Assembly: GCA_002995645.1 (NCBI GenBank) | Contig: PUHO01000006.1 | Coordinates: 67,623-131,622 of the forward strand | DNA from: SAR324 cluster bacterium | GTDB taxonomy: Bacteria > SAR324 > XYD2-FULL-50-16 > HCM1 | Length of the DNA stretch: 64,000 bases | Reading direction: 5' to 3' | Part shown: in pieces, positions 5,638-56,364 of the stretch | Layout of the letters: the number at the start of each line of letters is the position of its first letter | Numbering within the stretch: the stretch's first letter is position 1 | Program-made: the position numbers and the translations under genes | Notes under the pieces: model-generated | Told to the model about the DNA's origin: nothing | The model's database searches: none | Seen by the model: the letters and a program-made list of their open reading frames with translations, nothing else

Positions 5638-5640
5638 AGT

Positions 5641-5741
5641 AAGATAACCTGTCGTGCCTAGCTTAATAGGCAACAGCAAACAAGGCTTTAATCTTTGTTG
5701 GATTGCCACTCACAACACACGCCCCTTCCTTTGTTTCTTGC
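5641..5741 (-). pseudogene. Detached duplicate of the proS 3' end (22 nt downstream + stop + 76 nt of coding tail)
   Basis: 101 nt identical to 5775-5875 except one mismatch (GGATTGCC vs GGCTTGCC). It is not attached to any upstream ORF. Confidence 0.9.
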
Positions 5742-5744
5742 CCT

Positions 5745-5769
5745 AAATGAAGCTACTTAACTCGTATTT
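5745..5769 (+). repeat. Detached duplicate of the secA 3' end including the stop codon
   Basis: AAATGAAGCTACTTAACTCGTATTT matches 5534-5558 (AAATGAAACTACTTAACTCGTATTT) with one mismatch. Confidence 0.85.
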
Positions 5770-5796
5770 AAGATAAGATAACCTGTCGTGCCTAGC

Positions 5797-7233
5797 TTAA
5801 TAGGCAACAGCAAACAAGGCTTTAATCTTTGTTGGCTTGCCACTCACAACACACGCCCCTTCCTTTGTTTCTTGCGCCACAGGCAAACAACGAATAGTAG
5901 CTTTGGTTTCGTCTTGTATTTGATTAGCAACAGCAGAACTACCGTCCCAATAAGCATATACAAAACCACCTTGTTTAATATATTCTTTAAACTGCTCGTA
6001 GTTCTCAGCATAAAACGTATTTTCTTCTTGGAAAGTACGCGCTTTCTCAAATAAAGCGTTTTGTATATCTTCCAATAAATCCGGGATTTGCGTACCTAAT
6101 TCGTCTATAGGAATAAAATCTTTTTTACGCGTATCACGGCGAACAGCAACAACTATATTTTTTTCTATATCTTTAATACCAATCTCAATACGTAAAGGCG
6201 TACCTTGCTGTATCCATGTAAAAAAGCGATCGCCCGGGCTTAAATGAAATTGCGTATCTAGCTCCACTTTAAGGCTACCAAGTTGCTTTTTCAAAACAGA
6301 AACTACATTATCCGCATAAGCAAGTATCTGCTCTTTTTGTTCTTCTGATTTAACAATAGGAATAACAACAACCGGTCTCGGTGCTAAACGTGGTGGAATA
6401 ATAATACCGTCGTCATCGCCGTGAGTCATAATTAACCCACCAAGAATACGTGTACTCACGCCCCAACTTGTTGTATAAGCATATTGTAATTCATTGTTTT
6501 GATCTGAAAATTGAATCCCAAACGCTTTAGAAAAATTTTGTCCTAAATTATGGCTTGTTCCCATTTGCAAAGCTTTTTTATCTTGCATCAGCGCTTCTAC
6601 TGTATAAGTTGTATCAGCACCCGGAAACTTCTCATGTTCCGGTTTTGCACCGTCAATAACAGGAATAGCACAAACATTTTCTAAAAAATCTTTATATATG
6701 CCTAGCATTTTTTCCGTTTCCTCTTGTGCCTCTTGCGCATTAGCGTGCGCCGTATGCCCTTCTTGCCATAGAAATTCAGAAGTACGTAAAAATAACCTTG
6801 TACGTTTTTCCCAACGCATCACACTACACCACTGATTCATTAACATAGGCAAATCGCGGTAACTTTGTATCCATTGCGCATAGGCATAACCTATAATCGT
6901 TTCCGAACTAGGACGGATAACATATTTTTCTTCTAATTCTTTACCGCCGGCATAGGTAACCATAGCAAGCTCAGGAGCAAAACCTTCCACATGTTCCGCT
7001 TCTTTTGTAATAAACGACTCAGGAATTAACAAAGGAAAATAAGCATTGCGATGTCCTGTTTCTTTAAACTTTGTATCTAAGTAATTTTGCAACGACTCCC
7101 AAATGCTATAGCCGTTAGGCTGGATTATCATACATCCCTTAACCGGCGCATGGGTTGCCAATTTACCTACTTTAATAACGTCTTGATACCATTGAGGAAA
7201 ATTTTCTTTTCTTGGTGTAATGTTTTTTGCCAT
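5797..7233 (-). CDS. proS: Prolyl-tRNA synthetase (archaeal/eukaryote-like short form)
   Basis: 478-aa ORF. Class II ProRS signature SYRDLPMLMNQWCSVMRWE, anticodon-binding and C-terminal zinc-like domain, ends in AY as in this ProRS type. Confidence 0.92.
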   Translation of the reverse strand: MAKNITPRKENFPQWYQDVIKVGKLATHAPVKGCMIIQPNGYSIWESLQNYLDTKFKETGHRNAYFPLLIPESFITKEAEHVEGFAPELAMVTYAGGKELEEKYVIRPSSETIIGYAYAQWIQSYRDLPMLMNQWCSVMRWEKRTRLFLRTSEFLWQEGHTAHANAQEAQEETEKMLGIYKDFLENVCAIPVIDGAKPEHEKFPGADTTYTVEALMQDKKALQMGTSHNLGQNFSKAFGIQFSDQNNELQYAYTTSWGVSTRILGGLIMTHGDDDGIIIPPRLAPRPVVVIPIVKSEEQKEQILAYADNVVSVLKKQLGSLKVELDTQFHLSPGDRFFTWIQQGTPLRIEIGIKDIEKNIVVAVRRDTRKKDFIPIDELGTQIPDLLEDIQNALFEKARTFQEENTFYAENYEQFKEYIKQGGFVYAYWDGSSAVANQIQDETKATIRCLPVAQETKEGACVVSGKPTKIKALFAVAY

Positions 7234-16968: not shown

Positions 16969-17817
16969 ATGCATTTAAATAATAAATGGAAAGTAATCTT
17001 TTTTACTCTTTTTCTTTCTGTGTTCCTTGCTTCTTGCAATAATATTAAAATTGGATACAACTACGGACATTGGTTTCTCCGTCATTCTGTCTATAAATAT
17101 ACTAATTTAAACTCTTCGCAAGTACGTTTACTAGAACAACAATTTCAAAGTTTTCTTGATTATAATAAGAAATACGATATTCCTAATTATATTGCTCTTT
17201 TACGACATATAAAACGACTCTCTAGCCATAAAGAAGCAACAGAACAAGCATTGGAAGAAATAACGTTAGATGCGCAAACACTGACTTACGCTGCTTTTGA
17301 ATCGTTCATAGACCATGCCGTACCAGTGATACAAACATTATCACCAAAACAAATACAAGAAATTAGAGAGAGTATTAGTGACAAATTTGACGAACGTATT
17401 GAAGAATATGAAGACAAGACACTAGAAGAAAGGCAAGATAAGCGTTTTAATCAGTTACTAGATCGCTTTGCAACCTATATGGGAGACTTAAACGAAGAAC
17501 AACAAAAACTGTTAAGAGACCGCGTTAATCTTATGCATTTCGTAACGGTAGAACAAGAAAAAGAAAGGAAACAATTCTCACTAGAGTGGCTTGATAAACT
17601 AGAAAAAGCACAAAAAGATAAACAGGAGCTTACTAGCTTGTTAAAAAGCCGCCTATTCTCCGTTGCGATTACAGAGTATAATAGAAGATGGATTCATTTT
17701 TATTTAGCTTTACAAAAAACAGCAACACAAAAACAAATCGACGGCTTTCAAAAGAAACTGCAAAATATTATAGATCCGCTACAAGACTTACATCAAGAAG
17801 CAATTAAGAAGATTTAA
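16969..17817 (+). CDS. Lipoprotein, possibly DUF6279-like
   Basis: 282-aa ORF. Lipobox FLASC. The N-terminal pattern C-x-IKIGYNYGHWFL...LNSSQ...L...F resembles the DUF6279 lipoprotein family as I remember it. Confidence 0.5.
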   Translation: MHLNNKWKVIFFTLFLSVFLASCNNIKIGYNYGHWFLRHSVYKYTNLNSSQVRLLEQQFQSFLDYNKKYDIPNYIALLRHIKRLSSHKEATEQALEEITLDAQTLTYAAFESFIDHAVPVIQTLSPKQIQEIRESISDKFDERIEEYEDKTLEERQDKRFNQLLDRFATYMGDLNEEQQKLLRDRVNLMHFVTVEQEKERKQFSLEWLDKLEKAQKDKQELTSLLKSRLFSVAITEYNRRWIHFYLALQKTATQKQIDGFQKKLQNIIDPLQDLHQEAIKKI

Positions 17818-18616
17818 GCCAATAAGAAGAAATTAAATCAGATGTAATCGGATCCCCTGTTTTCCAAAATCCAAGCCGAGCGTCCGGCTTATTAGCACCG
17901 TGAAAATCAGATCCAGCAGTAATTAGCAAATTATGTTTTGCAACTAACCCTTTAAAAATAGCAATCTCTTCTTCAGTATGTCTTCCTGAGTAGACTTCTA
18001 AAGCATCTAAGCCATATGCCACACATGCTTCAATGGTAGCAACACAAGTATCTTTGTCTTTGCTTATAGTCGTAGGATGAGCTATCACCGCTTTGCCGCC
18101 GGCTTCGTGCACTAAATTAATAGCATCTTGCGCACTAATATGCCCTTCATTTTTAAACTCTTTTAGATATTCGTCAAAAGAAACGCGTAAAGGAATATTA
18201 TGTTGATCTCTTAATAAGATAGCCATATGAAAACGTCCGTATGCAACTTCCGGCAAAAATGCAAACGCAACGTTTAAGTCATATTTATCTTTAACATGTT
18301 GCAACATGGCTTTCATTCGTTTTGTTCTTAAATCTATAGCTTCTTTTAGCGCTTGTTGCAAACGTTTGTTTGCAGGATCAATTCCTAATCCTAATAAATG
18401 AAATAGCCCTTCTGAAGCATCTATGGTTATCTCTACGCCTAAAATCGGACGTATTTGATATGCGGCACATGCTTTTTGAAAATCTAATAAACCCGCTACG
18501 TTATCATGATCTGTTAAAGCAAGTGTTTTAAGCCCCCTTCCTTTAGCCAATTGAGCTAAGTCTTTTGGTGAGGAAGTGCCGTCTGAAAAATAAGAATGCG
18601 CATGTAAATCAAGCAT
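17804..18616 (-). CDS. PHP-domain phosphoesterase (TrpH/YciV-like)
   Basis: 270-aa ORF. N-terminal DLHAHSYFSDG metal-binding motif and C-terminal GSDFHG. Its 3' end overlaps the convergent lipoprotein gene by 14 nt. Confidence 0.88.
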   Translation of the reverse strand: MLDLHAHSYFSDGTSSPKDLAQLAKGRGLKTLALTDHDNVAGLLDFQKACAAYQIRPILGVEITIDASEGLFHLLGLGIDPANKRLQQALKEAIDLRTKRMKAMLQHVKDKYDLNVAFAFLPEVAYGRFHMAILLRDQHNIPLRVSFDEYLKEFKNEGHISAQDAINLVHEAGGKAVIAHPTTISKDKDTCVATIEACVAYGLDALEVYSGRHTEEEIAIFKGLVAKHNLLITAGSDFHGANKPDARLGFWKTGDPITSDLISSYWLKSS

Positions 18617-24737: not shown

Positions 24738-26401
24738 TATTTCGTTTTTTATATCTATGGAAGATAGTTGTTTTATATAGCTTACTATGTATACTTACTA
24801 GCTGTTATCATGATTCTAATCTAGCAGATAAACTATTAGAAATAGAAGAAGTAGACAACTATTTTGCTGCCATTAACTTCACTCCAACAACAAACACGGC
24901 AGTCAAAGGCGTATATCTTCTTTCGCTACATGGCTCACAAGCGCTTGCACCTGTACTTGTCCCGGCAAGTAAAACTATTTTTCCCGTTTTTCCTATACGA
25001 ACTGAAGGGGATACTGTTTTTTCAGTATATAAACACTTTGATACGCCTTACCCCAATAACGAAGCTGTTTTTACGTTTGTTGCCCCGTTTCGTTCTAAAA
25101 ACTTACCGAACACTATAGCAGAAACAGGATTTATACATCCTATTCCCATTGTTAGCGCTACAACCTATCATTTTGATATAACAGGCCAAGCTGATCCCAC
25201 TCCAGACACCTATAAAGTAACTTATCTAGAAGACACAAATATCCCTAAAGACGCGATACAAATAAAACATCTTGCAAAAGACACGGAAACAATAACGTAT
25301 CACTTTAAAATGTATCCTAATAATGAGAAAGAATATTATCTAGCAGGATATAACTATCAACTGACTTCTAGTTTTGATATGTTTAAAACAGAAAAAATTA
25401 TCCGATCACGTATTTCAAACAATAGATTTGAACTCATTACAACAAGAACTAACTACAAAAACGGGATATTAGCCGATTTTCCACGTGAGTCTTTTGGGAC
25501 AAAGCCATATGGAAAAAATGGAACAGATAGCGCTCAAATCCTAGAAATTGTTAAAAACATTTCTACCCCTATAGACTCGACACAAAATACAAGCACAACA
25601 ACAACCTCCTATTATAACGGCGCTCTAACTATTGCTTTTCAAGAATTAGAAAAAGACGTATATTACAATACAAAGCTAAAACTACTTCAATCAAAAGAAG
25701 TCCATAGCTGGTCTTTTGACAAAACTTTCGCAGATATAAAATATAATTATTCATTACAAAAAACAGACTATGTCAACAATCCAAGTCAAGGGCTGTTTGG
25801 ATTACCGGCACATACCGTTCAATTTACGTTTGTATCCGGCTTAGCTACACGTAATTGGGAAAAGTTATATACATATAATACATGGGGATTGCCTAAAACC
25901 ATACAGACGAAAGACACAACCGGCACAGTCACAGAAACAGAAGAGTTTACCTATGATGCAAAAAATCGCTTAACTAAGCAAGAAACAATAGATAATAAAT
26001 TAAATCAGTGTAAAGATCAAAGTGAAAAAATAGAAAACGTATATACAGATATAGAAGAGAACCTAGACTCTATCACAGAAAAAAAGTTTATTTGTAACAC
26101 CGGGACCTATACGTTAACTTCGCAAAAAACAACGCATTATAGTACGGATCTCCAACCTACCGATATTATTACCTATGATGTTTCAACAACTCCGGCAGAA
26201 GCTACGCAAGAAACGATTATTTCCTATTCTTATTATAAACAAAAAAAGCAAGAACAGTTTTTAGAGTTGCCTTCCAAAAAAGAATTATATAGAGTTCTCT
26301 ATAGCTATGATGCTAATCATTTTTTTATTAGCGCGATTACAGTGGATCCCGATAATAATTTAACAAAAGGCTATGATCATAGTAGTTATGAATATAAATA
26401 A
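24725..26401 (+). CDS. Hypothetical lipoprotein with YD-repeat-like motifs
   Basis: 558-aa ORF. Lipobox LTSC. T/N/Y-rich beta-type sequence. FTYDAKNRLTKQE and YSYDANHFF resemble YD/RHS repeat cores. Confidence 0.55.
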   Translation: MASLIFRFLYLWKIVVLYSLLCILTSCYHDSNLADKLLEIEEVDNYFAAINFTPTTNTAVKGVYLLSLHGSQALAPVLVPASKTIFPVFPIRTEGDTVFSVYKHFDTPYPNNEAVFTFVAPFRSKNLPNTIAETGFIHPIPIVSATTYHFDITGQADPTPDTYKVTYLEDTNIPKDAIQIKHLAKDTETITYHFKMYPNNEKEYYLAGYNYQLTSSFDMFKTEKIIRSRISNNRFELITTRTNYKNGILADFPRESFGTKPYGKNGTDSAQILEIVKNISTPIDSTQNTSTTTTSYYNGALTIAFQELEKDVYYNTKLKLLQSKEVHSWSFDKTFADIKYNYSLQKTDYVNNPSQGLFGLPAHTVQFTFVSGLATRNWEKLYTYNTWGLPKTIQTKDTTGTVTETEEFTYDAKNRLTKQETIDNKLNQCKDQSEKIENVYTDIEENLDSITEKKFICNTGTYTLTSQKTTHYSTDLQPTDIITYDVSTTPAEATQETIISYSYYKQKKQEQFLELPSKKELYRVLYSYDANHFFISAITVDPDNNLTKGYDHSSYEYK

Positions 26402-27074
26402 TTTTCTTACTTCCTCTTTTTCTTTGCCCGGTTGGTGCTTACATTGTCAAAAATACCTTTATAAATCTTACGGTTTACCAATTTGTATTAGTTGTTATAA
26501 ACGCATTGTATTTTGGGATAAAGCACTTTGTCCTTTATGTAATCATTTCCATCCTTATTTAGCTTGTGAAAACTCTACTACCCCTTATTTAAGCCAAGTA
26601 TATGTTATTTGCCGCTATAATGAAATCTTGCATTCGCTTGTTACTAGCTTGAAATATAAAAAGAACTTACTTTCTAAAACTATTCTTGGGTTATTATTAT
26701 CCCATTATATGCGAAACAACCAACAAGAATGGCACCAGTTTGAAGGTATGATCCCTATTCCTATTAATAAACAAAGATTACGTACAAGAGGATTTAATCA
26801 AACTCATGTACTAGCATTAGCTCAATCTTATTTACCTATTTTATCTAATATATTAATTAAAACAAAATACCATGCGCACCAAGCCGGACTTTCCCAAGAA
26901 GAGCGATCGCGCAATATTATCCGTTCTTTTACAATAAAAAAATCCCTTCCACCTAAAAAATATCTTCTTTTAGACGACGTTTTCACAACAGGGAATACTT
27001 TAAATGAAGCGGCACGTATTTTATTAGAAGCCGGCGCTAAGGAAGTATGCGCTATTACACTTGCACATACGTAA
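26373..27074 (+). CDS. comF: ComF-family phosphoribosyltransferase-like competence protein
   Basis: 233-aa ORF. N-terminal CxxC pairs (CLHCQ, CISCYK, CPLCN), C-terminal PRTase motif LLLDDVFTTGNT. The start may be ATG 26388. Confidence 0.85.
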   Translation: MIIVVMNINNFLTSSFSLPGWCLHCQKYLYKSYGLPICISCYKRIVFWDKALCPLCNHFHPYLACENSTTPYLSQVYVICRYNEILHSLVTSLKYKKNLLSKTILGLLLSHYMRNNQQEWHQFEGMIPIPINKQRLRTRGFNQTHVLALAQSYLPILSNILIKTKYHAHQAGLSQEERSRNIIRSFTIKKSLPPKKYLLLDDVFTTGNTLNEAARILLEAGAKEVCAITLAHT

Positions 27075-27075
27075 C

Positions 27076-28002
27076 AAAAATAATGCTATTAAGTTAGATA
27101 CTTAATGTTTACTATCTTTTGAAAAAAGTTTGTCACCAATCAGCATAATCGGCACTTTTGTCATCATGTATACAAAGCACAAAATAAACAAACTTAACAT
27201 GACAAGACTAATAGCAAAATCATATAAAACTAAAATAATGCTATTAAGTTAGATACTTAATGTTTACTATCTTTTGAAAAAAGTTTGTCACCAATCGGCA
27301 TAATCGGCACTTTTGTCATCATGTATACAAAACACAAAATAAACAAACTTAACATGACAAGAGTAATAGCAAAATCATATAAAACTAAAATAATGCTATT
27401 AAGTTAGATACTTAATGTTTACTATCTTTTGAAAAAAGTTTGTCATCAATCGGCATAATCGGTACTTTTGTCATCATGTATACAATGCACAAAATAAACA
27501 AACTTAACATGACAAGAGTAATAGCAAAATCATATAAAACGAAAATAATGCTATTAAGTTAGATACTTAATGTTTACTATCTGTTGAAAAAAGTTTGTCA
27601 TCAATCGGCATAATCGCTACTTTTGTCATCATGTATACAAAACACAAAATAAACAAACTTAACATGACAAGACTAATAGCAAAATCATATAAAACAAAAA
27701 TAATGCTATTAAGTTAGATACTTAATCTTTACTATCTTTTGAAAAAAGTTTGTCACCAATCGGCATAATCGCTACTTTTGTCATCATGTATACAAAACAC
27801 AAAATAAACAAACTTAACATGACAAGACTAATAGCAAAATCATATAAAACTAAAATAATGCTATTAAGTTAGATACTTAATGTTTACTATCTTTTGAAAA
27901 AAGTTTGTCACCAATCGGCATAATAGGTACTTTTGTCATCATGTATACAAAACACAAAATAAACAAACTTAACATGCCAAGAGTAATAGCAAAATCATAT
28001 AA
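27076..28002 (-). repeat. Six tandem 155-bp units: five detached copies plus the functional copy of the actF 3' end with its downstream spacer
   Basis: The marker TAATGCTATT recurs at 27081, 27236, 27391, 27546, 27701 and 27856 (period exactly 155). Each unit is 27 nt of spacer, a stop codon and about 125 nt of actF coding tail. Only a few substitutions per unit and no indels. Confidence 0.95.
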
Positions 28003-29166
28003 GTTGAAAGAAAAACCAATAATTGCTTTATGCCCTATACCTAATGCCGCTTGATTTTCCTGTATAGACGGAACAACAAGCAAGTATTTCTCTAACCACA
28101 TACCAATAATAATGATAATGGCAATAATACGAGAAAACCAAACAGATTGGCTTGTCGTACGGCTAAGTAAACCAAAAAAAGGAATAACAACAACAGTCCC
28201 TGCAACAATCCAAAATACAATACGCCATTCATAAGAAAGCATACGTAAAGCGAGATACGGCGTTTCTTCCGGTAAGTTCGCATACCATATAGTAAGGATT
28301 TGCGCGAAAATAACATAGGTCCATAAAAGGCAACTAGCAAAACTTAGTTTAGACATATCGTGATATCGTTTTGTACTAATATATTCAGATAAGTTTTGCG
28401 TTTTTTTAAGGATACCGGCAATTAACATTAAAGAAGCAAAAGCAACCACAAGACCGGACACCGCATATTCAACGCCAAACATAGTACTAAACCAAGCTTG
28501 ATCTATAGACATAATCCAATCAAAAGCAATGAGACTAGTCAATAAACCGTACATAATAGCACATATAGGAGCTAAACGTCTCATTTTACAATAACTACGT
28601 TGCGTTTCATCGCTTTGTTCGCCATAAGAGCAGCTAAGAAGTTTCATAAACCAACTACGTTTCTCTGGAGCCACTAAACCGGCGTCCGCCCTAAGGCTAT
28701 AATATAAATAAGCAAAAGCAAAACCTAATAAAACAAGGTAAGTTATAATATTACGTTTTACAAAGAAAGAAAAATGAAGCCAACCTTGCTTTGCGGCAAT
28801 AACACGAGCTGGATATATCCATTCAAAGAAATGGCTTGCCCCAAAAAACAAGACAATAAACAAGACAAAACTAACCGGAGCAAAAGCAAACAAGCCTTCT
28901 GCCATACGTTTCACCGGTCTAGCCCAAACGGCAGAGGTAATAGTAAAAATTACAGACAAAGCTAAACCGCCAAGTGCCACGCTAGTAAAAAATAAATTAT
29001 TCACAAGTAAAATTTGCCATACGTCTTGCGCATGTGCCCCACTTTTACCAACGCAAAACATAACCACGCCAAAAGCAATGAATAACCATAGAACATGATA
29101 CAACCATTTAGGCGGACGTATTTGCACCTGTTTTTGTAGTATCTGCATATCTTCTTGTCGTATCAT
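27877..29166 (-). CDS. actF: Alternative complex III subunit ActF (NrfD-like membrane subunit 2)
   Basis: 429-aa polytopic membrane ORF, last gene of the actABCDEF-ordered operon, paralogous in character to ActC. Confidence 0.8.
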   Translation of the reverse strand: MIRQEDMQILQKQVQIRPPKWLYHVLWLFIAFGVVMFCVGKSGAHAQDVWQILLVNNLFFTSVALGGLALSVIFTITSAVWARPVKRMAEGLFAFAPVSFVLFIVLFFGASHFFEWIYPARVIAAKQGWLHFSFFVKRNIITYLVLLGFAFAYLYYSLRADAGLVAPEKRSWFMKLLSCSYGEQSDETQRSYCKMRRLAPICAIMYGLLTSLIAFDWIMSIDQAWFSTMFGVEYAVSGLVVAFASLMLIAGILKKTQNLSEYISTKRYHDMSKLSFASCLLWTYVIFAQILTIWYANLPEETPYLALRMLSYEWRIVFWIVAGTVVVIPFFGLLSRTTSQSVWFSRIIAIIIIIGMWLEKYLLVVPSIQENQAALGIGHKAIIGFSFNLYDFAITLGMLSLFILCFVYMMTKVPIMPIGDKLFSKDSKH

Positions 29167-29193
29167 ATATCCCTTTTCTATAAATATCTAAAA

Positions 29194-29751
29194 CTAGCGT
29201 ACTGTGTGGCGTAAATAGTTTACAAGATCCCAACGCTCTTTCTCTGTCATAGCATTACCTAAAGGCGGCATAATAGCGCCGGAACCATAGGTTGCTTTAT
29301 AAAAAATATAGCCGTCAGATAAAGCAGGAAGCATAGGCGTAAGGTACATTGCCATCATGCCCTTTTGATTAACTTTGCTATCGCCAAGCCCTGCTTTGTT
29401 CGGTTTTTGTAAGTTTCCATGACATACTTGGCAATATACGTGGTACATATATTCCCCGTCAGCAATAGACTCTTTTGTTGGTTTAATTGGATTTTTAGTT
29501 GTCGTAGTTGGCATTGCTTCTCTTGCAATCCATGAAGTTAATACAGTTGTATCACCTACGTTACGATATACTTTTCCTTTTCTCGTTACACTATCTATAG
29601 GAAAATGAAGCATACTGCCTTGCTCTTGTGGCTTAATATTTTTTTGATTATACATATCTGTAATTAAAACCATTAAAGCCGATTTCGCAAATAAACTTCC
29701 TGTTGTTAATATTAATATAAGAAAAGTTATAACTACCCATTTATTTTTCAC
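29194..29751 (-). CDS. actE: Alternative complex III monoheme cytochrome c subunit ActE
   Basis: 185-aa ORF with signal peptide and a single CQVCHG heme motif. Position after actD. Confidence 0.8.
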   Translation of the reverse strand: MKNKWVVITFLILILTTGSLFAKSALMVLITDMYNQKNIKPQEQGSMLHFPIDSVTRKGKVYRNVGDTTVLTSWIAREAMPTTTTKNPIKPTKESIADGEYMYHVYCQVCHGNLQKPNKAGLGDSKVNQKGMMAMYLTPMLPALSDGYIFYKATYGSGAIMPPLGNAMTEKERWDLVNYLRHTVR

Positions 29752-30271
29752 AATAAATCTCCTCTGCTTGGTAAGATTGAAAGATAGCTTGTATATCTTT
29801 TATTTCTTCTTCTTTACAAGGAACAACAACGCCAAAGCGATCGCGCATAAAACGAGTATAATCGCGATAGGTCTTGCTAGTAGGAAATAAATGCTTTTTG
29901 TGACTTCGATAAATTAAAAGTAGCATACCTATAACGGTTGCTTCTACTGCCATAATAACGGTTGCTTCGAATATTATGGGAATAGAAGAAGGAATAGAAA
30001 TAATTGACTTTTCTGAAACAGGTAAAATCCAATCTAGCGTTGCCATACATATTAAAAACGTAGCAAAAAAACAGCCCTTCAATCCACCAATAAGAGAGAA
30101 GAAAGGAACGCGACTTTGCGGGTTGCCAAGTGCTTCTTCAATTTCATGTTGCGGAAACGGTGAATGCGTTGTTATCCCCTTAAAGTTTGCCTTTCGCAAG
30201 CTAGTAATGGAATCACACGTATCGTCTAAAAATGCAAACGTAGCCCATACGCCTATAAATTTTTTTTTCAT
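29741..30271 (-). CDS. actD: Alternative complex III membrane subunit ActD (DUF3341-like)
   Basis: 176-aa ORF. N-terminal soluble part (GVWATF...THSPFPQHEIEEALG) followed by two TM helices. Position between actC and actE. Confidence 0.75.
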   Translation of the reverse strand: MKKKFIGVWATFAFLDDTCDSITSLRKANFKGITTHSPFPQHEIEEALGNPQSRVPFFSLIGGLKGCFFATFLICMATLDWILPVSEKSIISIPSSIPIIFEATVIMAVEATVIGMLLLIYRSHKKHLFPTSKTYRDYTRFMRDRFGVVVPCKEEEIKDIQAIFQSYQAEEIYCEK

Positions 30272-30274: not shown

Positions 30275-31591
30275 TTAACTCCTTCTTTTTGGCGGGGTAA
30301 GCGTTTCTTTAACTTCACAAATCGCTAAAGACGGCATGATTTTAATAAATAAGAGAAACCACATAAAAAACCAACCAAAGCTCCCGAGAGTAATCCAAAT
30401 TTCGCCCCATTCAAAATGATAACTTCGCCACATATGCGGATCAAATGAATGCGCTAATGAAATCACAATAATATTAAATCGTTCAAGCCACATTCCAATA
30501 TTAATCACAATAGAAATAACAAATAAAGAAGGAATATGAGTTCGTACCTTTTTAAACCATAAAAGTAAAGGCACAACAAGAATACAAAAAATCGTTACAA
30601 AAAAGAAAAGCTTATATTCTCCAAAAGGTTGGAACCAAAAAATAGATTTCTCAAATTGATTACCAGAATAGTACGCCATAAAAAACTCAATTAAATACGA
30701 ATAGGCAACAAGTGTTCCCATAAAAATAACAAGTTTTGCAACACCTTCTAGATCGGCGATTTTAATTATATTTTTAAATCCGGGAAAAACAGCACGAACA
30801 GGAATGATAATAGTTAGCAACATGGCACAACCGGAAAAAATAGCACCTGCAAGAAAATAAGGACCAAAAATAGTAGAATGCCAACCTGGAATACTAGACA
30901 TGGCAAAATCCCAAGACACAATAGTTGCAACAGAAAAAACTAACGGCGTTGCAATAGCGGCGCATAGTAAGTAGCCGCGCATATAATGTAGCCATTGGTG
31001 ATTAGTTCCACGAAAACGAAAAGCTAACAAACTATAACAAAAACGTCGTAAGCCTTTTGTTTCATCTCGTAATACTGCCATATCTGGAATCAATCCTATC
31101 ATAAAGAAACTCATAGAAACAGATATATAGGTAGCCACCCCAAACACGTCCCATAATAAAGGCGATTTAAAGTTAACCCATAAATGCCTTTGATTAGGAT
31201 AGGGAATAAGCCAATAAAAATTCCAAATTCGCCCTAAGTGAATTAAAGGGAATAAACCGGCGGTCATAATAGCAAAAACAGTCATTGCTTCTGATATACG
31301 ATAAACAGAAGTACGAAACGGCGCCCTTACAAGGTAAAGGACTGCGGATATTAACGTTCCGGCATGGCCAATCTCAACCCAAAAGACAAAGTTAGTTATA
31401 TAAAATCCCCAATGAATAGAGTTGTTAATACCGCTTACTTCTAAGCCGTGTACTATTTGATACCACAATGCAACGGCTCCCATTGCTAATAGAATTAACG
31501 CTATATAAAATACTAACCACCACCCTTTTTTTGGTGGCTCCATAGCTCTTAAAATATCTTCGTTAACGCTTGCATATGTAACTTCTACCAC
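30275..31591 (-). CDS. actC: Alternative complex III quinol-interacting membrane subunit ActC (NrfD/PsrC-like)
   Basis: 438-aa polytopic membrane ORF immediately downstream of actB (2-nt gap). Confidence 0.85.
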   Translation of the reverse strand: MVEVTYASVNEDILRAMEPPKKGWWLVFYIALILLAMGAVALWYQIVHGLEVSGINNSIHWGFYITNFVFWVEIGHAGTLISAVLYLVRAPFRTSVYRISEAMTVFAIMTAGLFPLIHLGRIWNFYWLIPYPNQRHLWVNFKSPLLWDVFGVATYISVSMSFFMIGLIPDMAVLRDETKGLRRFCYSLLAFRFRGTNHQWLHYMRGYLLCAAIATPLVFSVATIVSWDFAMSSIPGWHSTIFGPYFLAGAIFSGCAMLLTIIIPVRAVFPGFKNIIKIADLEGVAKLVIFMGTLVAYSYLIEFFMAYYSGNQFEKSIFWFQPFGEYKLFFFVTIFCILVVPLLLWFKKVRTHIPSLFVISIVINIGMWLERFNIIVISLAHSFDPHMWRSYHFEWGEIWITLGSFGWFFMWFLLFIKIMPSLAICEVKETLTPPKRRS

Positions 31592-31592: not shown

Positions 31593-34500
31593 CTATCTCC
31601 TATACGTTTGCTTTTTATGTTTCACCTTCTTAAGATAGGTAACTGCAGGCTTAAAATTTAACTCTTCTAACTGTTTATAGCCGCGCTGCGTTGTTTGTAT
31701 TTCTTTAGTTAATTGACTGTTTGAATCAGCACGATTACCAAATATAATAGCGTTTGCTCCGCAAGCTTGTTGGCAAGCCGGTTGAATTTCATGATCATAC
31801 ACTATTCTATTTTCTTCTTTTGCGATCGCTTGCTTTTCTCTAATACGAGCATAACAAAAATTACATTTTTCCATAACGCCTTTTTCGCGAACGCTAACGT
31901 CCGGATTGAGTTGTAAATGTAGCGGTTTTGGAAATTCATAAGTACGCCAATTAAACCGTCTTTGCTTATACACACAGTTATTAGCACAATATCTTGTTCC
32001 AACACAACGATTATACACCATTGCATTAATCCCGTCCGGCGTATGATACGTTGCATACACAGGGCAAACAGTTTCACAACCTGCATTATCACACTGCGCG
32101 CACATTTGCGGGAAGTGTTGCACTTCTATAGCGCCTGTTTGAGCATCTTGCTCTATAAACCTTTCAATACGTAGCCAATGCATTTCCCTTCCTGTTGCAA
32201 CGCGATCTTTACCCACAACAGGCACGTTGTTTTCCGCTTGGCAAGCAATAACGCAAGCACTGCAACCACTGCATTTATCTAAGTCAATTAGCATTTCAAA
32301 CTTATACGGGCTATGATATTTTGGCGTATTATTTTCTCCTTTCAGCGCTTTTGCTTCTTCCACATTATGTGGCGTCGTATTATATAAATTCGTATTTTTT
32401 TGTCTATTTGTCGTAAAATACCGCACATGGTGATCTCTTTCTTTTTTTGCATAACTACCTAACTGACTTAAGCTAATAGTTTGCATTAAATCCCTTTGCT
32501 TTTGCGAACGATCAGGCATGCCCATTGGTCTATTAAGTTGTTTTTCATATAAATCCGTACGTTCTAGCCCGTCTAAACTAACTAAGTCCGCTTTTTCTGC
32601 CGTTCCTTTTGCCGTTACGACACGCGCATAAATCAAGTCGCCTGTTTCTGTGGTTTCACAACGAAAAAGATCCATAGGATTTAACCCTACTTTCTGGTTT
32701 TTAATTTGCAAATCATATTTTCTTTCAATATGAGCTAAGAAACTACTTTTATTACGTGTAGAAATATAACTTGGCAAAGGAACGTTACGTCCTAATCCGG
32801 TTGGCATAATTAATACGTTATCTGCTACGCCGTCATGAAGCCACGCTCCTACTTGCATTGTTGTTTGTTCTGTTTTAATTTCAACAAGGAAACCCTGTTC
32901 TACGCCTAGTTTTTTTGCTGTTGTTGGATTCATTTCAACCCAACTTCCCCAAACAAGTTGCGTTAACGGATGCGGCGCTTCTAAAAGCCACGATTTATTA
33001 CCGTTAATACCGTTTGCATTATGAAAAATACTATTAACTGCTAATAGCTGTATTTTTTCTTTTTCTAGTTTTTGCGGTTTAATCTGAAAAATGGATTTAT
33101 AAGAGAAGCTAACTACTTCTTTTTTAGTCGGCACAACGTACACGCCTTTTTGCAATGTTTTTTCCCAGAAGCTTTCAAAATCAATTGGATTAATCCCTAA
33201 TTTGAGATTTCGCCACTGTGTTTTTAAGTATTCTTTATAATTTGTTTCTTTTCTATCAGCAAGCACGTCTAATTCTTGCCCAACGCTAAGCATTAAATCA
33301 CCAATACTTTTTGTATTATATCCCGGGACTTTCGCCATAACCGGTTGTTGCAAACTATAAACGCCATTACAAGGAAACGAATCGCCCCAGCTTTCTAAAA
33401 AATGAGAAGTAGGCATTTGTAAATGCGCTTTTCTTGCCGTTTCGTCTTGTTCTGTAGATAAAGAAACAACGTACTTTGCTTTTGCCAGGGCTTTTTCTAC
33501 TTCAATTGATTTTGGCAAACTAAACAAAGGATTCACATTTTCAATAATCACTAACTCATATTTTCCGTCACGTATATTATCAAATGCTTGTTTAATACCG
33601 CTTAAAGAAGCGCTTTGGTATTGGTAATCTGCACCAAAAACAATACGTTCATTAATCGCACCGGTTATATAGTTCAGCAAATTAACGGCTAGTTGTAAAT
33701 TGTCTGCTTGCTTTGTTGCTACGTCGTTTCCACCGGCAAGAACAATAGGTCTCTTTGCTGCGGCTATTTCTTTTGCTAAAAAACTTAATTTCTGTTTTGC
33801 AATACCTGTAACGTTATGCACATATTCTAAAGAGTAGGTTTTTAGAAATGAAGCTATTTCTTCTTTACCTTCTATGTCTTTATTTGTTGTATTAAATAGA
33901 GAAGAGGCAAGGAATAAAGCAACGTACACTTCCCCGCCAACAGGGCAAGCAAACCAATGATCCGCATTCGCCGCACTTTGACTTATATGCGCTCCAACAT
34001 GTATATACTTTCCTTTTGCACCTTGTTTATATGAATGCATTTGCGCAAATCCACGAGAAAGCTTTTCTGTATACAACCAACTTTCTAAAAAATCAGCACC
34101 AAAATTCAAAAGGAGATCCGCTTTTTCTAGTTGTATTTCGGGGATTTCATATTTATTAAACGAAGCTTGATTAGCAAACATATTAGATTTAACAGGCAAC
34201 ATGTCTAAAGTCATATATTGCCCGTGCATTGTTTCCACAACGCGTTGTATTAAATCGTATATACTACCGGTACGCCTTTTGCCTATATATAATATAGAGC
34301 CTTTCGCTTCTTGCATCTTGCTAACAAGTTTTGTTTGCGCTTCTTTCCAAGTTAAGCTTTTGATCTGCTCTTTTTCAAACTCATTCGGTCCGGTTATACG
34401 ATTAGGATTATATAACCCTTGCAAAATAGCTTGCACAGAAGCACTTGCGCTTCCTTGACTTAAAGGATGATCCGGATTGCCTTCTATTTTAATAGCCCTT

Positions 34501-34734: not shown

Positions 34735-35385
34735 TTATTTATGACAAGCCAAACAATCAGTTGATCCTTTTATATAATGAAGCACACCGTGTGTATTTAA
34801 TTCTGCTTTTGCTTTATCTTTTTTATTTTTATCTACAAAAGCGCCGCCTCTGGTTATCCTTAACGGGATAATTACTTTTTTATTTTTAACGGCATGTTTT
34901 TTTCTATGACATTCTACGCACCATTTCATACTTAAATCAGCTTTCATTGTTTTTATTGTAATCTTTTCTCGATCCCGTATTTCACCGTGACATTGAGTAC
35001 AATCAAAACCGGCTTTAATATGTCTTTCATGTGAAAAATAAACAAAGTCGGGCAAGTCATGGATTTTCTTCCATAAAATTGGTTTTTTCTTTTCCCAATA
35101 TTGTTTTAATTTTTTAATTTGCGTTTGTTGTTCTTTTGTTGTTCCTTGCACAAGCGCATGGCACCCCATACAGGTTCGCACAGAAGGAATCGAAGCAACA
35201 GACGAACGCCTTGCCGTGGTATGGCAAAACTCACATGCTATTTCATTTTGTTTTGCATGCGTTTTATGGCTAAAAGCAATTGGTTGCCGTATTTCCGTGG
35301 CATAGGCGTTGTTTAACAAAAAAACCGTAAAAAACAAGAAAATACTAATAAAGCTTGTTTTGTATATAATATTGTATATTTGCAT
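34735..35385 (-). CDS. actA: Alternative complex III pentaheme cytochrome c subunit ActA
   Basis: Five CxxCH motifs (CEFCH, CMGCH, CTQCH, CVECH, CLACH). The ORF is open to 35433, but MQIYNIIYKTSFISIFLFF... (ATG 35385) gives a proper signal anchor. Confidence 0.85.
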   Translation of the reverse strand: MQIYNIIYKTSFISIFLFFTVFLLNNAYATEIRQPIAFSHKTHAKQNEIACEFCHTTARRSSVASIPSVRTCMGCHALVQGTTKEQQTQIKKLKQYWEKKKPILWKKIHDLPDFVYFSHERHIKAGFDCTQCHGEIRDREKITIKTMKADLSMKWCVECHRKKHAVKNKKVIIPLRITRGGAFVDKNKKDKAKAELNTHGVLHYIKGSTDCLACHK

Positions 35386-35837: not shown

Positions 35838-37094
35838 ATGAATAAATTTTTCAAAACCGCCCTAATAACTTTATTAGGTCTTTCTTGTGCTACTATTGCT
35901 GTGGCGCAGGATACAACAAAAAAAAGCTCAGTTGATTTTTCTGGATATGCTATCGGTAGCTTTGGTTACAATATGCAAAAGCATACTGATAACACTGGAA
36001 ATGACTACAAAATAAATGAAATTGAAACAACGGCTCACGGTCGTTTAATTGTTAAAGGCACGACGCAATTGAACGATTGGACAACGCAAGGTATCTTACG
36101 TTTTGCAGCTGTCGGAACAAGTACTAGCACTGCTAACGGTGTTGAAATGCAAAGAGCTTACGCTGTTGCATCTAATAAAACAATAGAAATCAGCGCTGGT
36201 TTAATGGATCCTGCTGATATTGAATTTTCAAAAAAATATTTCAATACTAATCAAATAGTATGTGGTCATGATGATTTTAGCGAAGGTGATGAAACTACAT
36301 TTGCTGGTTGTGATTATGATGCTGGTTCTGATTTTGTCTTTGGTTCGTCTACCTACGTTCAAGTAGGTTATGTTGCTCTAGATGCACATAAAGTATACGC
36401 TTTATTCGGTCATGGTCCTAAAACAATCAAGAACGACTTTGACATAACTAAAGGTGGACAACCGATAGATCAAACAAACTTAGCAGACACACCATATGGA
36501 AGCACTTCAATGGGTCTAATATACAAGGGTAGTTTTGATGTGACTTCTACTGATAAATTAGGTGTTAACGCTGCTTTCTATTATGGTTTAGGCAAAATTA
36601 ATCCTCTGTATACTGATGTTAATAAAAATCTTGAAAAATCTACTTTTGACGGTCTTTCTATTTTTCAAACTTCAGTTTATGCAAACTATGACTACAACAA
36701 TCAAATTTCAGCTAGTTTAGGTTTCAACTACGTTGGTAAATCTACTGGTGATAAAGATGTTGAAAATAAAGACGAAGACGGTAATGCATCTAAATATAAA
36801 AAATCTGAAAGCCTTATGCGTCTTGTAGGTGTAGTAAACTATACTATTGATTCTGCACAAGGTGCTTCTGCTATTTTTACATATAATTCAGACAAAAATA
36901 AATACTGGAAAGATGGAAACGATGTAACAAGAATACAGGCTGGTCTTGGTTATTCTTATGCTCTTTCTTCTAACTTACAAGCTCTTGGCTTTGCAAGATA
37001 TGAAGGTATTAGCACAAAAACTAAAGATAAAAGTCTAAAAACAGACAAAAGATCTGATATTTCTTTAGGTACTGGTTTAGGATATAGCTTCTAA
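35838..37094 (+). CDS. Porin-like outer-membrane beta-barrel protein
   Basis: 418-aa ORF. SD AGGAG upstream, signal peptide ...CATIAVAQD, alternating beta-strand pattern rich in G/Y/D/N/T, C-terminal GLGYSF with terminal Phe typical of OMPs. Confidence 0.7.
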   Translation: MNKFFKTALITLLGLSCATIAVAQDTTKKSSVDFSGYAIGSFGYNMQKHTDNTGNDYKINEIETTAHGRLIVKGTTQLNDWTTQGILRFAAVGTSTSTANGVEMQRAYAVASNKTIEISAGLMDPADIEFSKKYFNTNQIVCGHDDFSEGDETTFAGCDYDAGSDFVFGSSTYVQVGYVALDAHKVYALFGHGPKTIKNDFDITKGGQPIDQTNLADTPYGSTSMGLIYKGSFDVTSTDKLGVNAAFYYGLGKINPLYTDVNKNLEKSTFDGLSIFQTSVYANYDYNNQISASLGFNYVGKSTGDKDVENKDEDGNASKYKKSESLMRLVGVVNYTIDSAQGASAIFTYNSDKNKYWKDGNDVTRIQAGLGYSYALSSNLQALGFARYEGISTKTKDKSLKTDKRSDISLGTGLGYSF

Positions 37095-39799: not shown

Positions 39800-39818
39800 A
39801 CTATAGCAAGCAGTATAT

Positions 39819-50228: not shown

Positions 50229-50257
50229 ATTATAGCAATATTTCCTTGTTGTAACAA
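50229..50257 (-). promoter_or_regulatory. Candidate gatA promoter
   Basis: On the minus strand: TTGTTA, 17-nt spacer, TATAAT, ending 39 nt upstream of the gatA ATG. It lies just beyond the comM-tail repeats. Confidence 0.5.
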
Positions 50258-50280
50258 GAATATTTTTAGCTATTTTCTTT

Positions 50281-50815
50281 TTAGATCTTTAGCGATTGGT
50301 CTAGATTCCTATATGGCAACGCTTCGGCAAGGTGTTCTGTTTGTATTGATTCGCTATTTTCCAGATCGGCAATCGTACGACTCACCTTCAAAATACTATC
50401 GTACCCCCCGTCCGCTTAGCTTAAGTTTACTAACTGCTAATTGCAAAAGGGCTTCGCTTTGCTTATCTAACTTATTATAGTTTTGATTTTATTTCTTACA
50501 ATTAGAATTCTAGCGCTCTGTCTAGGTTCCTATATTGCAATGCTTCGGCAAGGTGCTCTGTTTGTATTGATTCGCTATTTTCCAGATCGGCAATTGTACG
50601 ACTCACTTTCAAAATACTATCGTACCCCCGTCCGCTTAGCTTAAGCTTACTAACTGCTAATTGCAAAAGGGATTCGCTTTGTTTATTTAGCTTGTTTTGA
50701 TTTTATTTGTTACAATTAGAATTCTAACGCTCTGTCCAGATTCCTATATTACAACGCTTCGGCAAGGTGCTTTGCTTTGTTTATCTAGTTTGTTATGATT
50801 TTGAATTTGTTACAA
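50281..50815 (-). pseudogene. Three detached tandem copies (one internally deleted) of the comM 3' end
   Basis: Copies of the stop-codon region TTAGAATTCTA... start at 50281 (most diverged), 50502 and 50716 (about 115 nt internally deleted). The functional copy starts at 50816. Each full unit is about 215 bp: 6 nt downstream plus about 210 nt of coding tail. Confidence 0.9.
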
Positions 50816-52354
50816 TTAGAATTCTAACGATCTGTCTAGATTCCTATATTGCAATGCTTCGGCAAGGTGTTCTGTTTGTATCGCTTCGCTATTTTCTAAA
50901 TCGGCAATCGTACGACTCACTTTCAAAATACTATCGTACCCCCGTCCGCTTAGCTTAAGCTTACTAACTGCTAATTGCAAAAGTGATTCGCTTTGTTTAT
51001 CTAGCTTGCAATAGTTTTGAATTTGCTTCGCTTTTAACAATCCGTTACGAAGCGTTTCATTTTGATATCTATCTTTTTGTTTTTGGCTAGCTTGGATTAC
51101 TTTCTCTTTCATCTGCTTACTAGAAGTAAACGAGGTTGTTGCTTGCCTTGCATCGGTTGAAATCACAGGCACTTCAATTTGCAAATCAATTCTATCTAGT
51201 AACGGACCGGATAAACGACTACGATACCGCGTGATTTGAGTCACACTGCAACGGCATTCATGATCGGCATCACCTAAATAACCACAAGGGCAAGGATTGG
51301 TGGCGGCTATTAATTGAAAATCAGCAGGGAACACAAAACTATCTTTTGCTCGTGTAATTGTAATTTGTTTATCCTCTAGCGGTTGCCTTAGCAAGTCTAA
51401 TGTAGCGCGCGAATATTCAGCTAATTCATCAAGAAATAAAACGCCATGATGTGCTAATGAAACTTCGCCAGCTCGTGGCGTACTTCCCCCTCCAACTAAG
51501 CCGGCACCGGAAACAGAATGGTGCGGCGTACGAAAAGGGCGTGTAATACGTTGTAAATCTTCTGTGGTAAATCCGTAATATAAAGAATAAATTTTTGCGA
51601 CTTGCAGTATTTCATCATAAGAAAGAGGTGACAAAATCGAAGGAAACCTACTAGCTAGCATAGATTTGCCCGATCCCGGTGGTCCTATTAATAAAATATG
51701 ATGTCTTCCTGCTGCTGCAATTTCTAAAGCGCGTTTTGCCTGTATATGCCCTTTAACATCGGCATAATCAAGCTCATTAGTGTGTCCTAGATTCTGTTTC
51801 AGGACGTCCTGTAAAGTGTCCTGGTATGATTCCAATACTTTTTCTTCTGTGTAAAAATCGATAATATCCTTAAGCGTATCAGCTATATAGATATCCATTT
51901 CCGGGACTATTGCCGCAACAGGTGCGTTCTCTCTAGGAAGGATACAAGTTTTTATGCCCTGTTTTTTTGCCTCCATTAACATAGCTAATATCCCGGCAAC
52001 AGGACGTATTCTACCTTGTAAAGAAAGCTCCCCAACTAAGAGCGTATTCTCTCCGCTTGTTGCAGGTAATCGTTTATCCGCTTTCAGAATTGCAATCGCT
52101 ATTGGCAAATCAAATCCGGTTCCGCCTTTACTTAATCCGGCAGGGGCAAGGTTCACCACAACGCGGCGAATAGGGAATCCGCCGGCTACATTAGACAGGC
52201 TTGCTGTTACACGCTCTCTACTTTCGCGAATAGCATGATCTGGCAAACCTACAATTTGAAACGCCCCTAAGCCAATAGAAACGTCAGCTTCCACTTCTAT
52301 AATATGAGCCTCAATTCCTATAACGGTTGCTGTATAGGTTATTATCTCGCTCAT
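50816..52354 (-). CDS. comM: Mg-chelatase-like AAA+ protein ComM/YifB
   Basis: 512-aa ORF. N-terminal Lon-protease-like domain, Walker A GPPGSGKSM, Walker B VLFLDEL, zinc-like CPCGYLGDADHECRC insertion. Confidence 0.93.
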   Translation of the reverse strand: MSEIITYTATVIGIEAHIIEVEADVSIGLGAFQIVGLPDHAIRESRERVTASLSNVAGGFPIRRVVVNLAPAGLSKGGTGFDLPIAIAILKADKRLPATSGENTLLVGELSLQGRIRPVAGILAMLMEAKKQGIKTCILPRENAPVAAIVPEMDIYIADTLKDIIDFYTEEKVLESYQDTLQDVLKQNLGHTNELDYADVKGHIQAKRALEIAAAGRHHILLIGPPGSGKSMLASRFPSILSPLSYDEILQVAKIYSLYYGFTTEDLQRITRPFRTPHHSVSGAGLVGGGSTPRAGEVSLAHHGVLFLDELAEYSRATLDLLRQPLEDKQITITRAKDSFVFPADFQLIAATNPCPCGYLGDADHECRCSVTQITRYRSRLSGPLLDRIDLQIEVPVISTDARQATTSFTSSKQMKEKVIQASQKQKDRYQNETLRNGLLKAKQIQNYCKLDKQSESLLQLAVSKLKLSGRGYDSILKVSRTIADLENSEAIQTEHLAEALQYRNLDRSLEF

Positions 52355-54870: not shown

Positions 54871-56364
54871 ATGCTAATTTCTTGCCAAAACTGTAGTTCT
54901 CAATATGAAATTGATGAAAATAAAATTACAGAACCTAATTCTTTTATTCGCTGCAAAGCTTGTAAAGAGCCTATTTTCCTGCATCGGACACAAAATTCCT
55001 TGCAAATTAGCGATACTCCGCAGACTTTGATTCTCTGCCCAACTTGTGAAACTACGTATTCTTTATCGGCAGATGTTTTTACAGATGAGGGACCTACGCA
55101 AACAAAATGCTATAAATGTAAGTCACTTTTTAATAGTTACGCTTCTGGAAATACGGAAATACTAGACAAGGGAGAACAAGATTCGTCAACTGACAACAAA
55201 GATAATATAAACTTAGAGACAGCAGGTAACGAAGAGCAAGAAGAAACTAATGCTATAGACGATCAATTTGATTCTATTTTAACAGAATCTTTAGATATTG
55301 ATAGTGATGATCGTTCTAATCTTTTTCTTTCAACCGATGAAGAGACAAACAAAAATAACCAAGAAAATCAAGACACTACAAAAAACTTATTTTCTACTCA
55401 GGAAGAAAATTTAAACCAAGATATAGAAAACAATTTATTTTCTACCGATTCAGAAGAAGTCGATTTAAATGAGGAAGATAGCCTATTCTCTCCTCAAGAA
55501 GGCGATTCAAATCAAAATATAGAAACCGATTTATTTTCTACTGATTCAGAAATACTTTCTTTAGATAATACAGATACCTCGCTCTCTGATGATACAATAA
55601 AAATCACTCCCGACTCTACGGAAGAAGATTTATTTGCAGCTAATATAACAACTCCAAACCAAGATAAAAACAATATCTCCTCTAAAGGTATTATAGAAGA
55701 CGACCTATTTGATAATGAAACAGTTGCTGAGACACTAGATAAAGACTCGCCTTTTACTCAAAAAGACGAACGCTCATCAATAAAGCAAGAAGAAAATCCT
55801 GCCATAACAAAGCAAGCTGGCAAAAGAAGTAACCATGCAACTTTAAAAATAGTTGCCGCTGCTTGTATAATATGTCTTCTTGTTGGGACTACCTATTTCT
55901 GGTACTTTGCTCATCAAAGAGCACAAGTAGCTAGCACATCTAAAAACATAGTTTCCCAAATTCAAAATAAAATTTGGAAAAGACCTATTTCAATTTCGAA
56001 TCCATTGAAAGGAAAATATATTTTTAACAATAAAGAACAAAAATATATATTTATTATGGAAGGCAAGTTAAGGAATGAGACGAATAATCCAATCCATTTT
56101 GCGCATATTACGCTAAGCGCTAGAATCTACAATAAAAGTAACGAACTGTTATCTTCTAATATAAGCTATGCTGGAAAAAATCTTACTATAAAGCAAATTA
56201 CTAATAATAAGTTGCAAAAATTACAAAACTTCTTAAATCAAGATCCAGGCAAAGAAATTGATATTCCCGCTCATGGGCAAATTAATTTTCAAGCTTTATT
56301 CCCTAGACCTTCCACACGCATTTACGCTATGGAAGCGCATGTTGTTGCTTTCAAAAAAATCTAG
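54871..56364 (+). CDS. MJ0042-type double zinc-ribbon membrane protein with acidic LF-repeat linker and DUF3426-like C-terminus
   Basis: 497-aa ORF. Two zinc ribbons (C5/C8/C28/C31 and C56/C59/C80/C83), acidic low-complexity region with seven [NSD]LF motifs (aa 149-281), TM helix (aa 325-346), C-terminal beta-rich domain. Confidence 0.7.
   Translation: MLISCQNCSSQYEIDENKITEPNSFIRCKACKEPIFLHRTQNSLQISDTPQTLILCPTCETTYSLSADVFTDEGPTQTKCYKCKSLFNSYASGNTEILDKGEQDSSTDNKDNINLETAGNEEQEETNAIDDQFDSILTESLDIDSDDRSNLFLSTDEETNKNNQENQDTTKNLFSTQEENLNQDIENNLFSTDSEEVDLNEEDSLFSPQEGDSNQNIETDLFSTDSEILSLDNTDTSLSDDTIKITPDSTEEDLFAANITTPNQDKNNISSKGIIEDDLFDNETVAETLDKDSPFTQKDERSSIKQEENPAITKQAGKRSNHATLKIVAAACIICLLVGTTYFWYFAHQRAQVASTSKNIVSQIQNKIWKRPISISNPLKGKYIFNNKEQKYIFIMEGKLRNETNNPIHFAHITLSARIYNKSNELLSSNISYAGKNLTIKQITNNKLQKLQNFLNQDPGKEIDIPAHGQINFQALFPRPSTRIYAMEAHVVAFKKI

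Follow-up and report, generated by a model that had tools for sequence, protein, structure and literature searches.

The convergent junction between a comF-family phosphoribosyltransferase gene (26373..27074, + strand) and actF, the last gene of an alternative complex III operon (27877..29166, - strand), is filled by a tandem array of six 155-bp units at 27073..28002 in the genome of a SAR324 cluster bacterium. The array was analysed within a 64-kb stretch of contig PUHO01000006.1 (assembly GCA_002995645.1, positions 67,623 to 131,622 of the forward strand), which is referred to here as the window and from whose first letter all positions are counted. The units are copies of the 3' end of actF together with the spacer downstream of that gene. 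One of them is joined to actF and conserved, whereas the other five are detached from the gene and decaying. Arrays with the same anatomy recur elsewhere in the window.

Architecture of the array

Tandem repeats were detected with Tandem Repeats Finder (TRF), and the units of the array were compared column by column in a table. TRF placed the array at 27073-28002 with a period of 155, 6.0 copies, 96% matches, 0% indels and a score of 1720, and the unit table likewise gave 6 x 155 bp free of indels. An earlier reading of this DNA, called the original prediction below, had described six head-to-tail units with an exact 155-bp period that run from the comF stop codon to about 125 nt inside actF; the period was confirmed, and the segment was found to end 126 nt inside actF. 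The marker TAATGCTATT recurs where it had been reported, at 27081 + 155n. In each unit, AA is followed by a spacer of 27 nt, by TTA as the - strand stop codon of actF, and by 41 codons of that gene (amino acids 389-429). Unit 1 begins at base 2 of the comF stop codon TAA (27072-27074), so that the stop codon overlaps its first two bases. In the real actF gene the stop codon lies at 27877-27879, where the + strand reads TTA. Continuity into actF is limited to the rightmost unit, unit 6 (27848-28002), in agreement with the prediction. The comF stop and the real actF stop are 802 nt apart, whereas a single-copy layout would leave 27 nt, and the claim that the spacer had grown from 27 nt to about 800 nt was therefore upheld.

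The unit is confined to this locus. A 20-mer that is invariant across the units has six occurrences in the window, all of them at the array, where shuffles lead one to expect 0.00. A BLAST comparison of the unit with the rest of the window gave no meaningful match and no dispersed copies. Three other classes of repeat were considered and set aside. An in-frame protein tandem repeat, which the prediction had already denied, is ruled out by a period that is not divisible by 3 and by the actF stop codon present in each unit. Clustered regularly interspaced short palindromic repeats (CRISPR) are excluded since the units abut, with no unique spacers between them. A mobile element of the miniature inverted-repeat transposable element (MITE), insertion sequence (IS) or repetitive extragenic palindromic (REP) type does not fit a unit that is restricted to the array locus within the window.

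Divergence and history of the units

Twelve columns vary over the six units, and no indels are present. All units are distinct, with pairwise differences of 3-7 and a divergence of approximately 2-4.5%, in agreement with the few substitutions noted in the original prediction. The motif variants quoted in the prediction (CACC or CATC, and CGGCAC, CGGTAC, CGCTAC or AGGTAC) all appear in the unit table, as does the contrast between CATGACAAG in the five detached units and CATGCCAAG in the functional unit. The conservation of ActF was assessed from an alignment of 20 homologues that are 48-53% identical, in which T395, P414 and P417 show no variation and conservation at G397 is at least 90%. The detached units, all read on the - strand, depart from these residues. 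Unit 1 (27073..27227) comprises a spacer and an actF-tail fragment with S395, V397 and L417, unit 2 (27228..27382) has V397, unit 3 (27383..27537) has V397, I406 and D419, unit 4 (27538..27692) has S395, V397, A414, D419 and T425, and unit 5 (27693..27847) has S395, V397, A414 and D429. Thus V397 is found in all five detached units, S395 in units 1, 4 and 5, A414 in units 4 and 5, and L417 in unit 1; the further replacements are F406I, G419D (units 3 and 4), K425T and H429D. Unit 6 (27848..28002, - strand), which comprises the real spacer together with the stop codon and final 41 codons of actF, keeps all conserved residues, and its one private change is synonymous (CCG to CCT, P414).

Amino-acid changes are found at 8 of the 11 variable coding columns and the remaining 3 are silent, and the replacements all lie in detached units. 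Because the replacements fall on residues that are invariant or nearly invariant in ActF, and because the attached unit keeps these residues, the detached units are free of constraint. They are non-coding fragments of a gene tail in a state of decay, whereas the attached unit is conserved. This contrast is the expected outcome of selection on one functional copy and drift on five useless ones. The shared G397V replacement can be explained in either of two ways: the five detached units descend from one detached copy that was already mutated, or exchanges that carried V397 into the attached unit were purged by selection.

The sequences at the ends of the array carry information on how it arose. 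Junction microhomology amounts to 0 bp, with a T to the left of unit 1 where the unit ends in A, and a G to the right of unit 6 where the unit starts with A. The original prediction had placed the junction on similar short strings, CATACGTAA and CATATAA. Both strings exist, but they are 2 nt out of register with the junction. It had also proposed stepwise amplification on the ground that neighbouring units share variants. Tandem amplification as such is supported, and neighbours do share variants at three columns (64, 80 and 81), but growth from neighbour to neighbour did not reach significance over the whole unit. Adjacency is no predictor of similarity, since the sum of neighbour differences is as low in 80 of 720 permuted orders, and the closest pair consists of units 2 and 6 (3 differences). 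All four combinations occur in 6 of the 10 informative two-state site pairs, which therefore fail the four-gamete test. These mosaic variant patterns point to recombination among units (unequal crossing-over or conversion) or to recurrent mutation.

Neighbouring genes, other arrays and repeat load

The open reading frames (ORFs) near the array comprise those of ActA-F, ComF and LpxB, together with two that have no Pfam match. The comF product matches Pfam PF00156 (E 4e-8) and NCBIfam TIGR00201 comF (E 9e-31, under the curated cut-off). ActF has no match in Pfam or NCBIfam; its best matches among solved structures in PDB are 6btm_F (6e-27), 6lod_F, 8k9e_F and 6f0k_F, with E values of 6e-27 to 3e-22, and these four subunit-F structures outscore the chains of the paralogous subunit C (ActC). 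The other members of the operon, all on the - strand, are ActA (34735-35433), ActB (31593-34712; 1039 aa, QrcB/QrcC-like), ActC (30275-31591; NrfD), ActD (29741-30271; PF11821) and ActE (29194-29751; cytochrome c), with ActA and ActB resembling QrcA/QrcB/QrcC. From the structure-sequence matches and its position after ActD and ActE, actF is identified as the gene for alternative complex III subunit F. The gene names used in the original prediction can thus be retained, in the case of actF on the strength of four subunit-F structures and an ActA-F operon, and in the case of comF at the level of the ComF/phosphoribosyltransferase family, below the curated cut-off.

At least four tandem arrays, the actF array included, are present in the window, and its gene-tail anatomy is shared by two of the others. 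The comM array (50255..51012, - strand) consists of units of approximately 221 bp that combine a spacer part of about 25 nt with the last ~65 codons of a comM/yifB-like ORF (50816..52354). It contains two full detached copies (94% identical; older, frameshifted), one partial copy (100-bp) and one attached copy, and lies at a co-directional junction upstream of gatA. In the proS/secA array (5640..5875, - strand), the tail of proS (5797..7233) and its spacer are duplicated at a convergent junction. The 102-nt copy of the proS tail and spacer (5640-5741) has 1 difference from the real sequence (5774-5875), 134 bp apart, and between the two proS-tail copies there is a 25-nt duplicate of the secA 3' end (5744-5770). 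A hairpin at about 5597-5637 (-17.7 kcal/mol, z -6.9) forms a strong bidirectional terminator in the secA/proS spacer. Copy identities across the arrays are 99%, 95.5-98%, 94% and about 70% with a frameshift. The copies are of different ages, and the duplication process has therefore acted repeatedly. Its presence at other loci also indicates a general mutational process and not something specific to actF.

Tandem repeats of other kinds are found as well. A gene-free gap of 2.6 kb (37200-39630), by far the largest intergenic region of the window, is full of complex tandem repeats and is flanked by an ORF at 35838..37094 (+) and by tRNA-Glu/tRNA-Lys at 39726-39894 (-). Its 47-nt sub-repeat (about CGCAAACTCTTCTCTACTCGCTTATCTTGCAAGTTATATTACTCTCT) is nested in periods of 272, 319 and 345 nt; these repeats have no Rfam match and no copy elsewhere in the window. 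The ORF at 54871..56364 (+) contains an in-frame tandem repeat of 2 x 96 nt (32 aa) at 55388-55579, with 74% identity between the two copies.

The repeat load was compared using the TRF settings of an earlier study (PMC3287509), with 881 kb around actF homologues in other bacteria as controls. TRF coverage is 4.2% of the window vs 0.24% of the controls, and the repeats of the window have a mean period of 136 bp and an identity of 89-96%. Apart from its repeats the window is tightly packed. Its median intergenic gap is 22 nt, 89% of it is coding DNA, and its G+C content is about 35%. All intergenic gaps longer than 410 nt in it are tandem arrays. Of the 5 convergent junctions 3 carry an array, as against 1 of 38 co-directional and none of 4 divergent ones (hypergeometric P = 0.0024). 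The two convergent junctions free of arrays have spacers of -14 and 20 nt. The former is formed by ORFs 16969..17817 (+) and 17804..18616 (-), whose 3' ends overlap by 14 nt (17804-17817). On the + strand, all 2-kb bins of the window have a negative GC skew, which makes the - strand the probable leading strand. In that case comF and secA, the + strand genes at two convergent junctions with arrays, would be transcribed against the direction of replication. It is possible that the origin of the duplications is tied to head-on conflict between replication and transcription.

Origin of the array and relation to known repeats

The array is most likely the result of near-neutral tandem amplification of a gene tail and its spacer, that is, a non-coding, long-period repeat of the variable number tandem repeat (VNTR) or minisatellite type. 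In the one assembly from which its structure is known, it has the constant period, the high identity and the unconstrained copies that characterize this type. From the structure, decay, mosaicism and recurrence described above, we infer the following order of events and mechanism. A single illegitimate duplication, joined without microhomology, would have copied the 155 bp between the comF stop and a point 126 nt inside actF. This first duplication would have been costless, as one complete actF and one complete comF remain. A detached copy would then have gained G397V (C to A, unit column 130), and later growth to five detached copies may have occurred by unequal homologous recombination and/or replication slippage. 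An identity of 155 bp would permit unequal exchange or slippage, which would both add and remove units, and exchanges between units would yield the mosaic variants. Purifying selection would be limited to the unit joined to actF, and the other five would drift as gene-tail pseudogene fragments with no dedicated function. Duplications of 3' ends should be the best tolerated, notably at 3'-3' junctions, because both genes stay complete and no promoter is disturbed. Since they leave genes intact, the placement of the arrays can be explained by tolerance alone.

Several observations weigh against near-neutral amplification. The period has been kept perfectly and no indels have entered the array despite a divergence of 2-4.5%. 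Every unit carries a small hairpin at the stop codon and promoter-like hexamers with 9 of 12 matches on both strands, as predicted from the sequence; the excess of promoter-like sites over shuffles is not taken as evidence because a sixfold repetition of DNA with 30% G+C explains it. The enrichment of arrays at convergent junctions could reflect tolerance, but it could also reflect a benefit in the spacing or termination of convergent transcripts. Comparative data give no additional examples of the array. Among 5.8 billion database proteins, the closest matches other than the source's own sequences are 52% identical for ActF and 62% identical for GatA (48717-50189), and come from metagenome-assembled genomes of SAR324 and Deltaproteobacteria. 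A scan of GTDB species with ActF gave nothing above 52% identity, no synteny and no array, and the closest relatives have other genes downstream of actF. A scan of metagenomes for the invariant 20-mer of the unit gave 0 matches.

The recurrence of gene-tail arrays in the window also invites a broader and rather unlikely explanation, namely that the actF array is one product of a genome-wide, ongoing duplication of 100-350-bp segments from gene 3' ends. Such a process would prefer convergent genes and would represent a syndrome like that of Ehrlichia ruminantium that arose independently, the host being a deep-branching, SAR324-related lineage of low G+C. It might be tied to convergent transcription or head-on conflict, or the copies might be selected as insulation in a compact genome. 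Selection on the actF array itself, the main rival to near-neutral amplification, is improbable but would take a related form, in which the array is kept as a transcription buffer that places a spacer and serial weak terminators between comF and the convergent act operon. Six weak sites and 775 extra bp would cut read-through and antisense transcription. A buffer of this kind is consistent with an original 27-nt spacer that has no strong terminator, unlike the secA/proS spacer, and with the difference in array frequency between convergent junctions and all others (3 of 5 vs 1 of 42). It also draws on a weak, A+T-rich hairpin, ATTAAGT-TAGAT-ACTTAAT, which overlaps the actF stop at 27863..27881 (-6.9 kcal/mol, z -2.3), recurs at columns 16-34 of every unit and is followed by AUUAUUUU, a T-rich tail. 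However, the 7-bp stem of this hairpin consists of A-T or G-U pairs throughout, and a search for canonical terminators in 26300-29300 gave 0 terminator-like sites even under a lax definition. An intrinsic terminator, or an array of them, was dismissed as a class on these 0 sites and a stem that is 7 bp long and all A/T. The two array-free convergent junctions do with their short spacers, the comM array is at a co-directional junction, and the proS/secA junction was duplicated despite the strong terminator already there. The convergent enrichment is equally predicted by tolerance, no promoter being disturbed at such junctions.

A structured non-coding RNA was considered separately and rejected. 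Rfam gave no match in 26900-28200 at the gathering threshold or even at E<=1, and the fold of the unit is no more stable than that of dinucleotide shuffles (z -0.8 on the + strand and -1.0 on the - strand). A long-range 11-bp helix (columns 82-92 with 127-137), which the C-to-A change shared by the detached units completes, is treated as chance because its pairing is disrupted at column 136 in three units and the fold as a whole lacks significance.

It is very unlikely that the array is an assembly artefact, in which the true genome would have one unit or another copy number and the assembler would have expanded or mis-threaded the repeat. In favour of an artefact, the period of 155 bp is near short-read length, shared variants would obscure the order and number of copies unless long reads were used, and published drafts of E. 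ruminantium likewise lose repeat units. However, all units differ from each other at 3 or more positions, so that at least six unit sequences were present in the sample. The radical replacements at invariant ActF residues are confined to detached units, a pattern that strain variants of a functional gene or duplicated reads cannot yield, and five of the six unit sequences are incompatible with a working actF. Moreover, short-read assemblers tend to collapse tandem repeats and not to expand them, and two further arrays of the same anatomy and of other ages are present. An assembly error in copy number is possible but is unlikely to abolish the array. The idea that the units encode small proteins is less credible again. 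Each of the five detached units has an uninterrupted 40-aa ORF on the + strand (TTG start, MSPIGIIGTFVIMYTKHKINKLNMTRVIAKSYKTKIMLLS) and, on the - strand, an uninterrupted frame for a 32-aa peptide that corresponds to the last ActF helix (MLSLFILCFVYMMTKVPIMPIGDKLFSKDSKH); the - strand peptides could be produced by read-through of the act operon. Both were rejected on the substitution pattern, which is mostly amino-acid-changing in the two frames. The - frame has 8 amino-acid-changing vs 3 silent columns, residues invariant in ActF included, while the + frame has P/S, S/G, G/A, K/M, T/P and L/V changes and is a mere antisense of the coding tail with a TTG start. A Shine-Dalgarno motif precedes only 10 of 46 real genes of the window, and its absence from the small ORFs is thus uninformative.

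Finally, it is hardly conceivable that the detached units diversify the C-terminus of ActF, either as silent cassettes that undergo gene conversion in the manner of pilS/pilE or as the template/variable repeat pair of a diversity-generating retroelement (DGR). The layout bears a superficial resemblance to these systems, with near-identical copies of the gene 3' end just downstream of the gene. Unlike them, the array has five copies and not one template, and domain searches gave no reverse transcriptase among the neighbouring ORFs. The mismatches are not adenine-specific, the two contrast-specific positions being T in detached and G in attached units, and G vs T, on the coding strand. The target would be a housekeeping membrane protein, an inner-membrane respiratory subunit, in which conversion would damage ActF since the variants fall on invariant residues.

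Near-neutral amplification, as the preferred explanation, gives the array value in several respects. It shows a duplication across a gene end in which the gene is left intact, the tail fragments decay and selection separates the attached unit from the detached ones. The array is likely to be a hypervariable (VNTR) typing marker for an uncultured lineage. It is also a warning to annotators, who should not treat the five 40-codon ORFs or the tail fragments as genes. Together, the arrays indicate an unusually high load of long-period repeats, concentrated where genes converge, in a genome that is compact elsewhere and unrelated to that of E. ruminantium. Should the lineage yield further genomes, this pattern could be used to study the origin of such duplications.

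Tandem amplification in bacteria is described by a model in which a RecA-independent first duplication is followed by homologous unequal crossing-over. The actF array resembles this model in its homology-free first junction, in its apparent expansion among identical units and in the intact state of both end-point genes. It differs from textbook amplifications, which span kilobases, are selected for dosage and are unstable, in that its units are 155 bp long, hold no complete gene and have diverged by 2-4.5%. Counterparts of the actF array are found in Wolbachia and E. ruminantium.

The Wolbachia repeats VNTR-141 and VNTR-105 are intergenic, have periods of 141 and 105 bp in 1-7 copies and serve as neutral typing markers (PMC3287509). 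Each of their periods contains a short hairpin that has been proposed to favour slippage (PMC3287509). The actF array is likewise a long-period intergenic array with a hairpin per period. The Wolbachia periods are 98-99% identical, contain internal sub-repeats as well as deletions and do not stem from a gene tail (PMC3287509), whereas divergence among the actF units is 2-4.5%, indels are absent and the units are demonstrable copies of the actF 3' end. For the VNTRs of both E. ruminantium and Wolbachia, slipped-strand mispairing or unequal recombination is the accepted mechanism.

The long-period intergenic repeats of E. ruminantium are those of Collins et al. (2005, PNAS) and Frutos et al. (2006, J Bacteriol), cited through PMC10710844 and PMC3287509. 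The host of the actF array belongs to a lineage unrelated to E. ruminantium, and its window is 89% coding with a median spacer of 22 nt, compared to about 64% coding in that species. Active copy-number change is shown in E. ruminantium, whereas the actF array is read from a single assembly. Many pseudogenes of E. ruminantium are said by Collins et al. to be truncated gene fragments that stem from such duplications. The repeats of this species expand and contract in non-coding regions (PMC10710844, PMC3287509). As in E. ruminantium, the arrays studied here lie in non-coding DNA, are built of units of roughly 100-350 bp in head-to-tail order and are the cause of long intergenic regions. TRF repeats cover 6.3% of the E. 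ruminantium genome, with a mean period of 138.7 bp and a mean identity of 91.6%, compared to a coverage of 0.38% in E. coli (PMC3287509). With a coverage of 4.2% and a mean period of 136 bp, a repeat excess like that of E. ruminantium is found within the 64-kb window.

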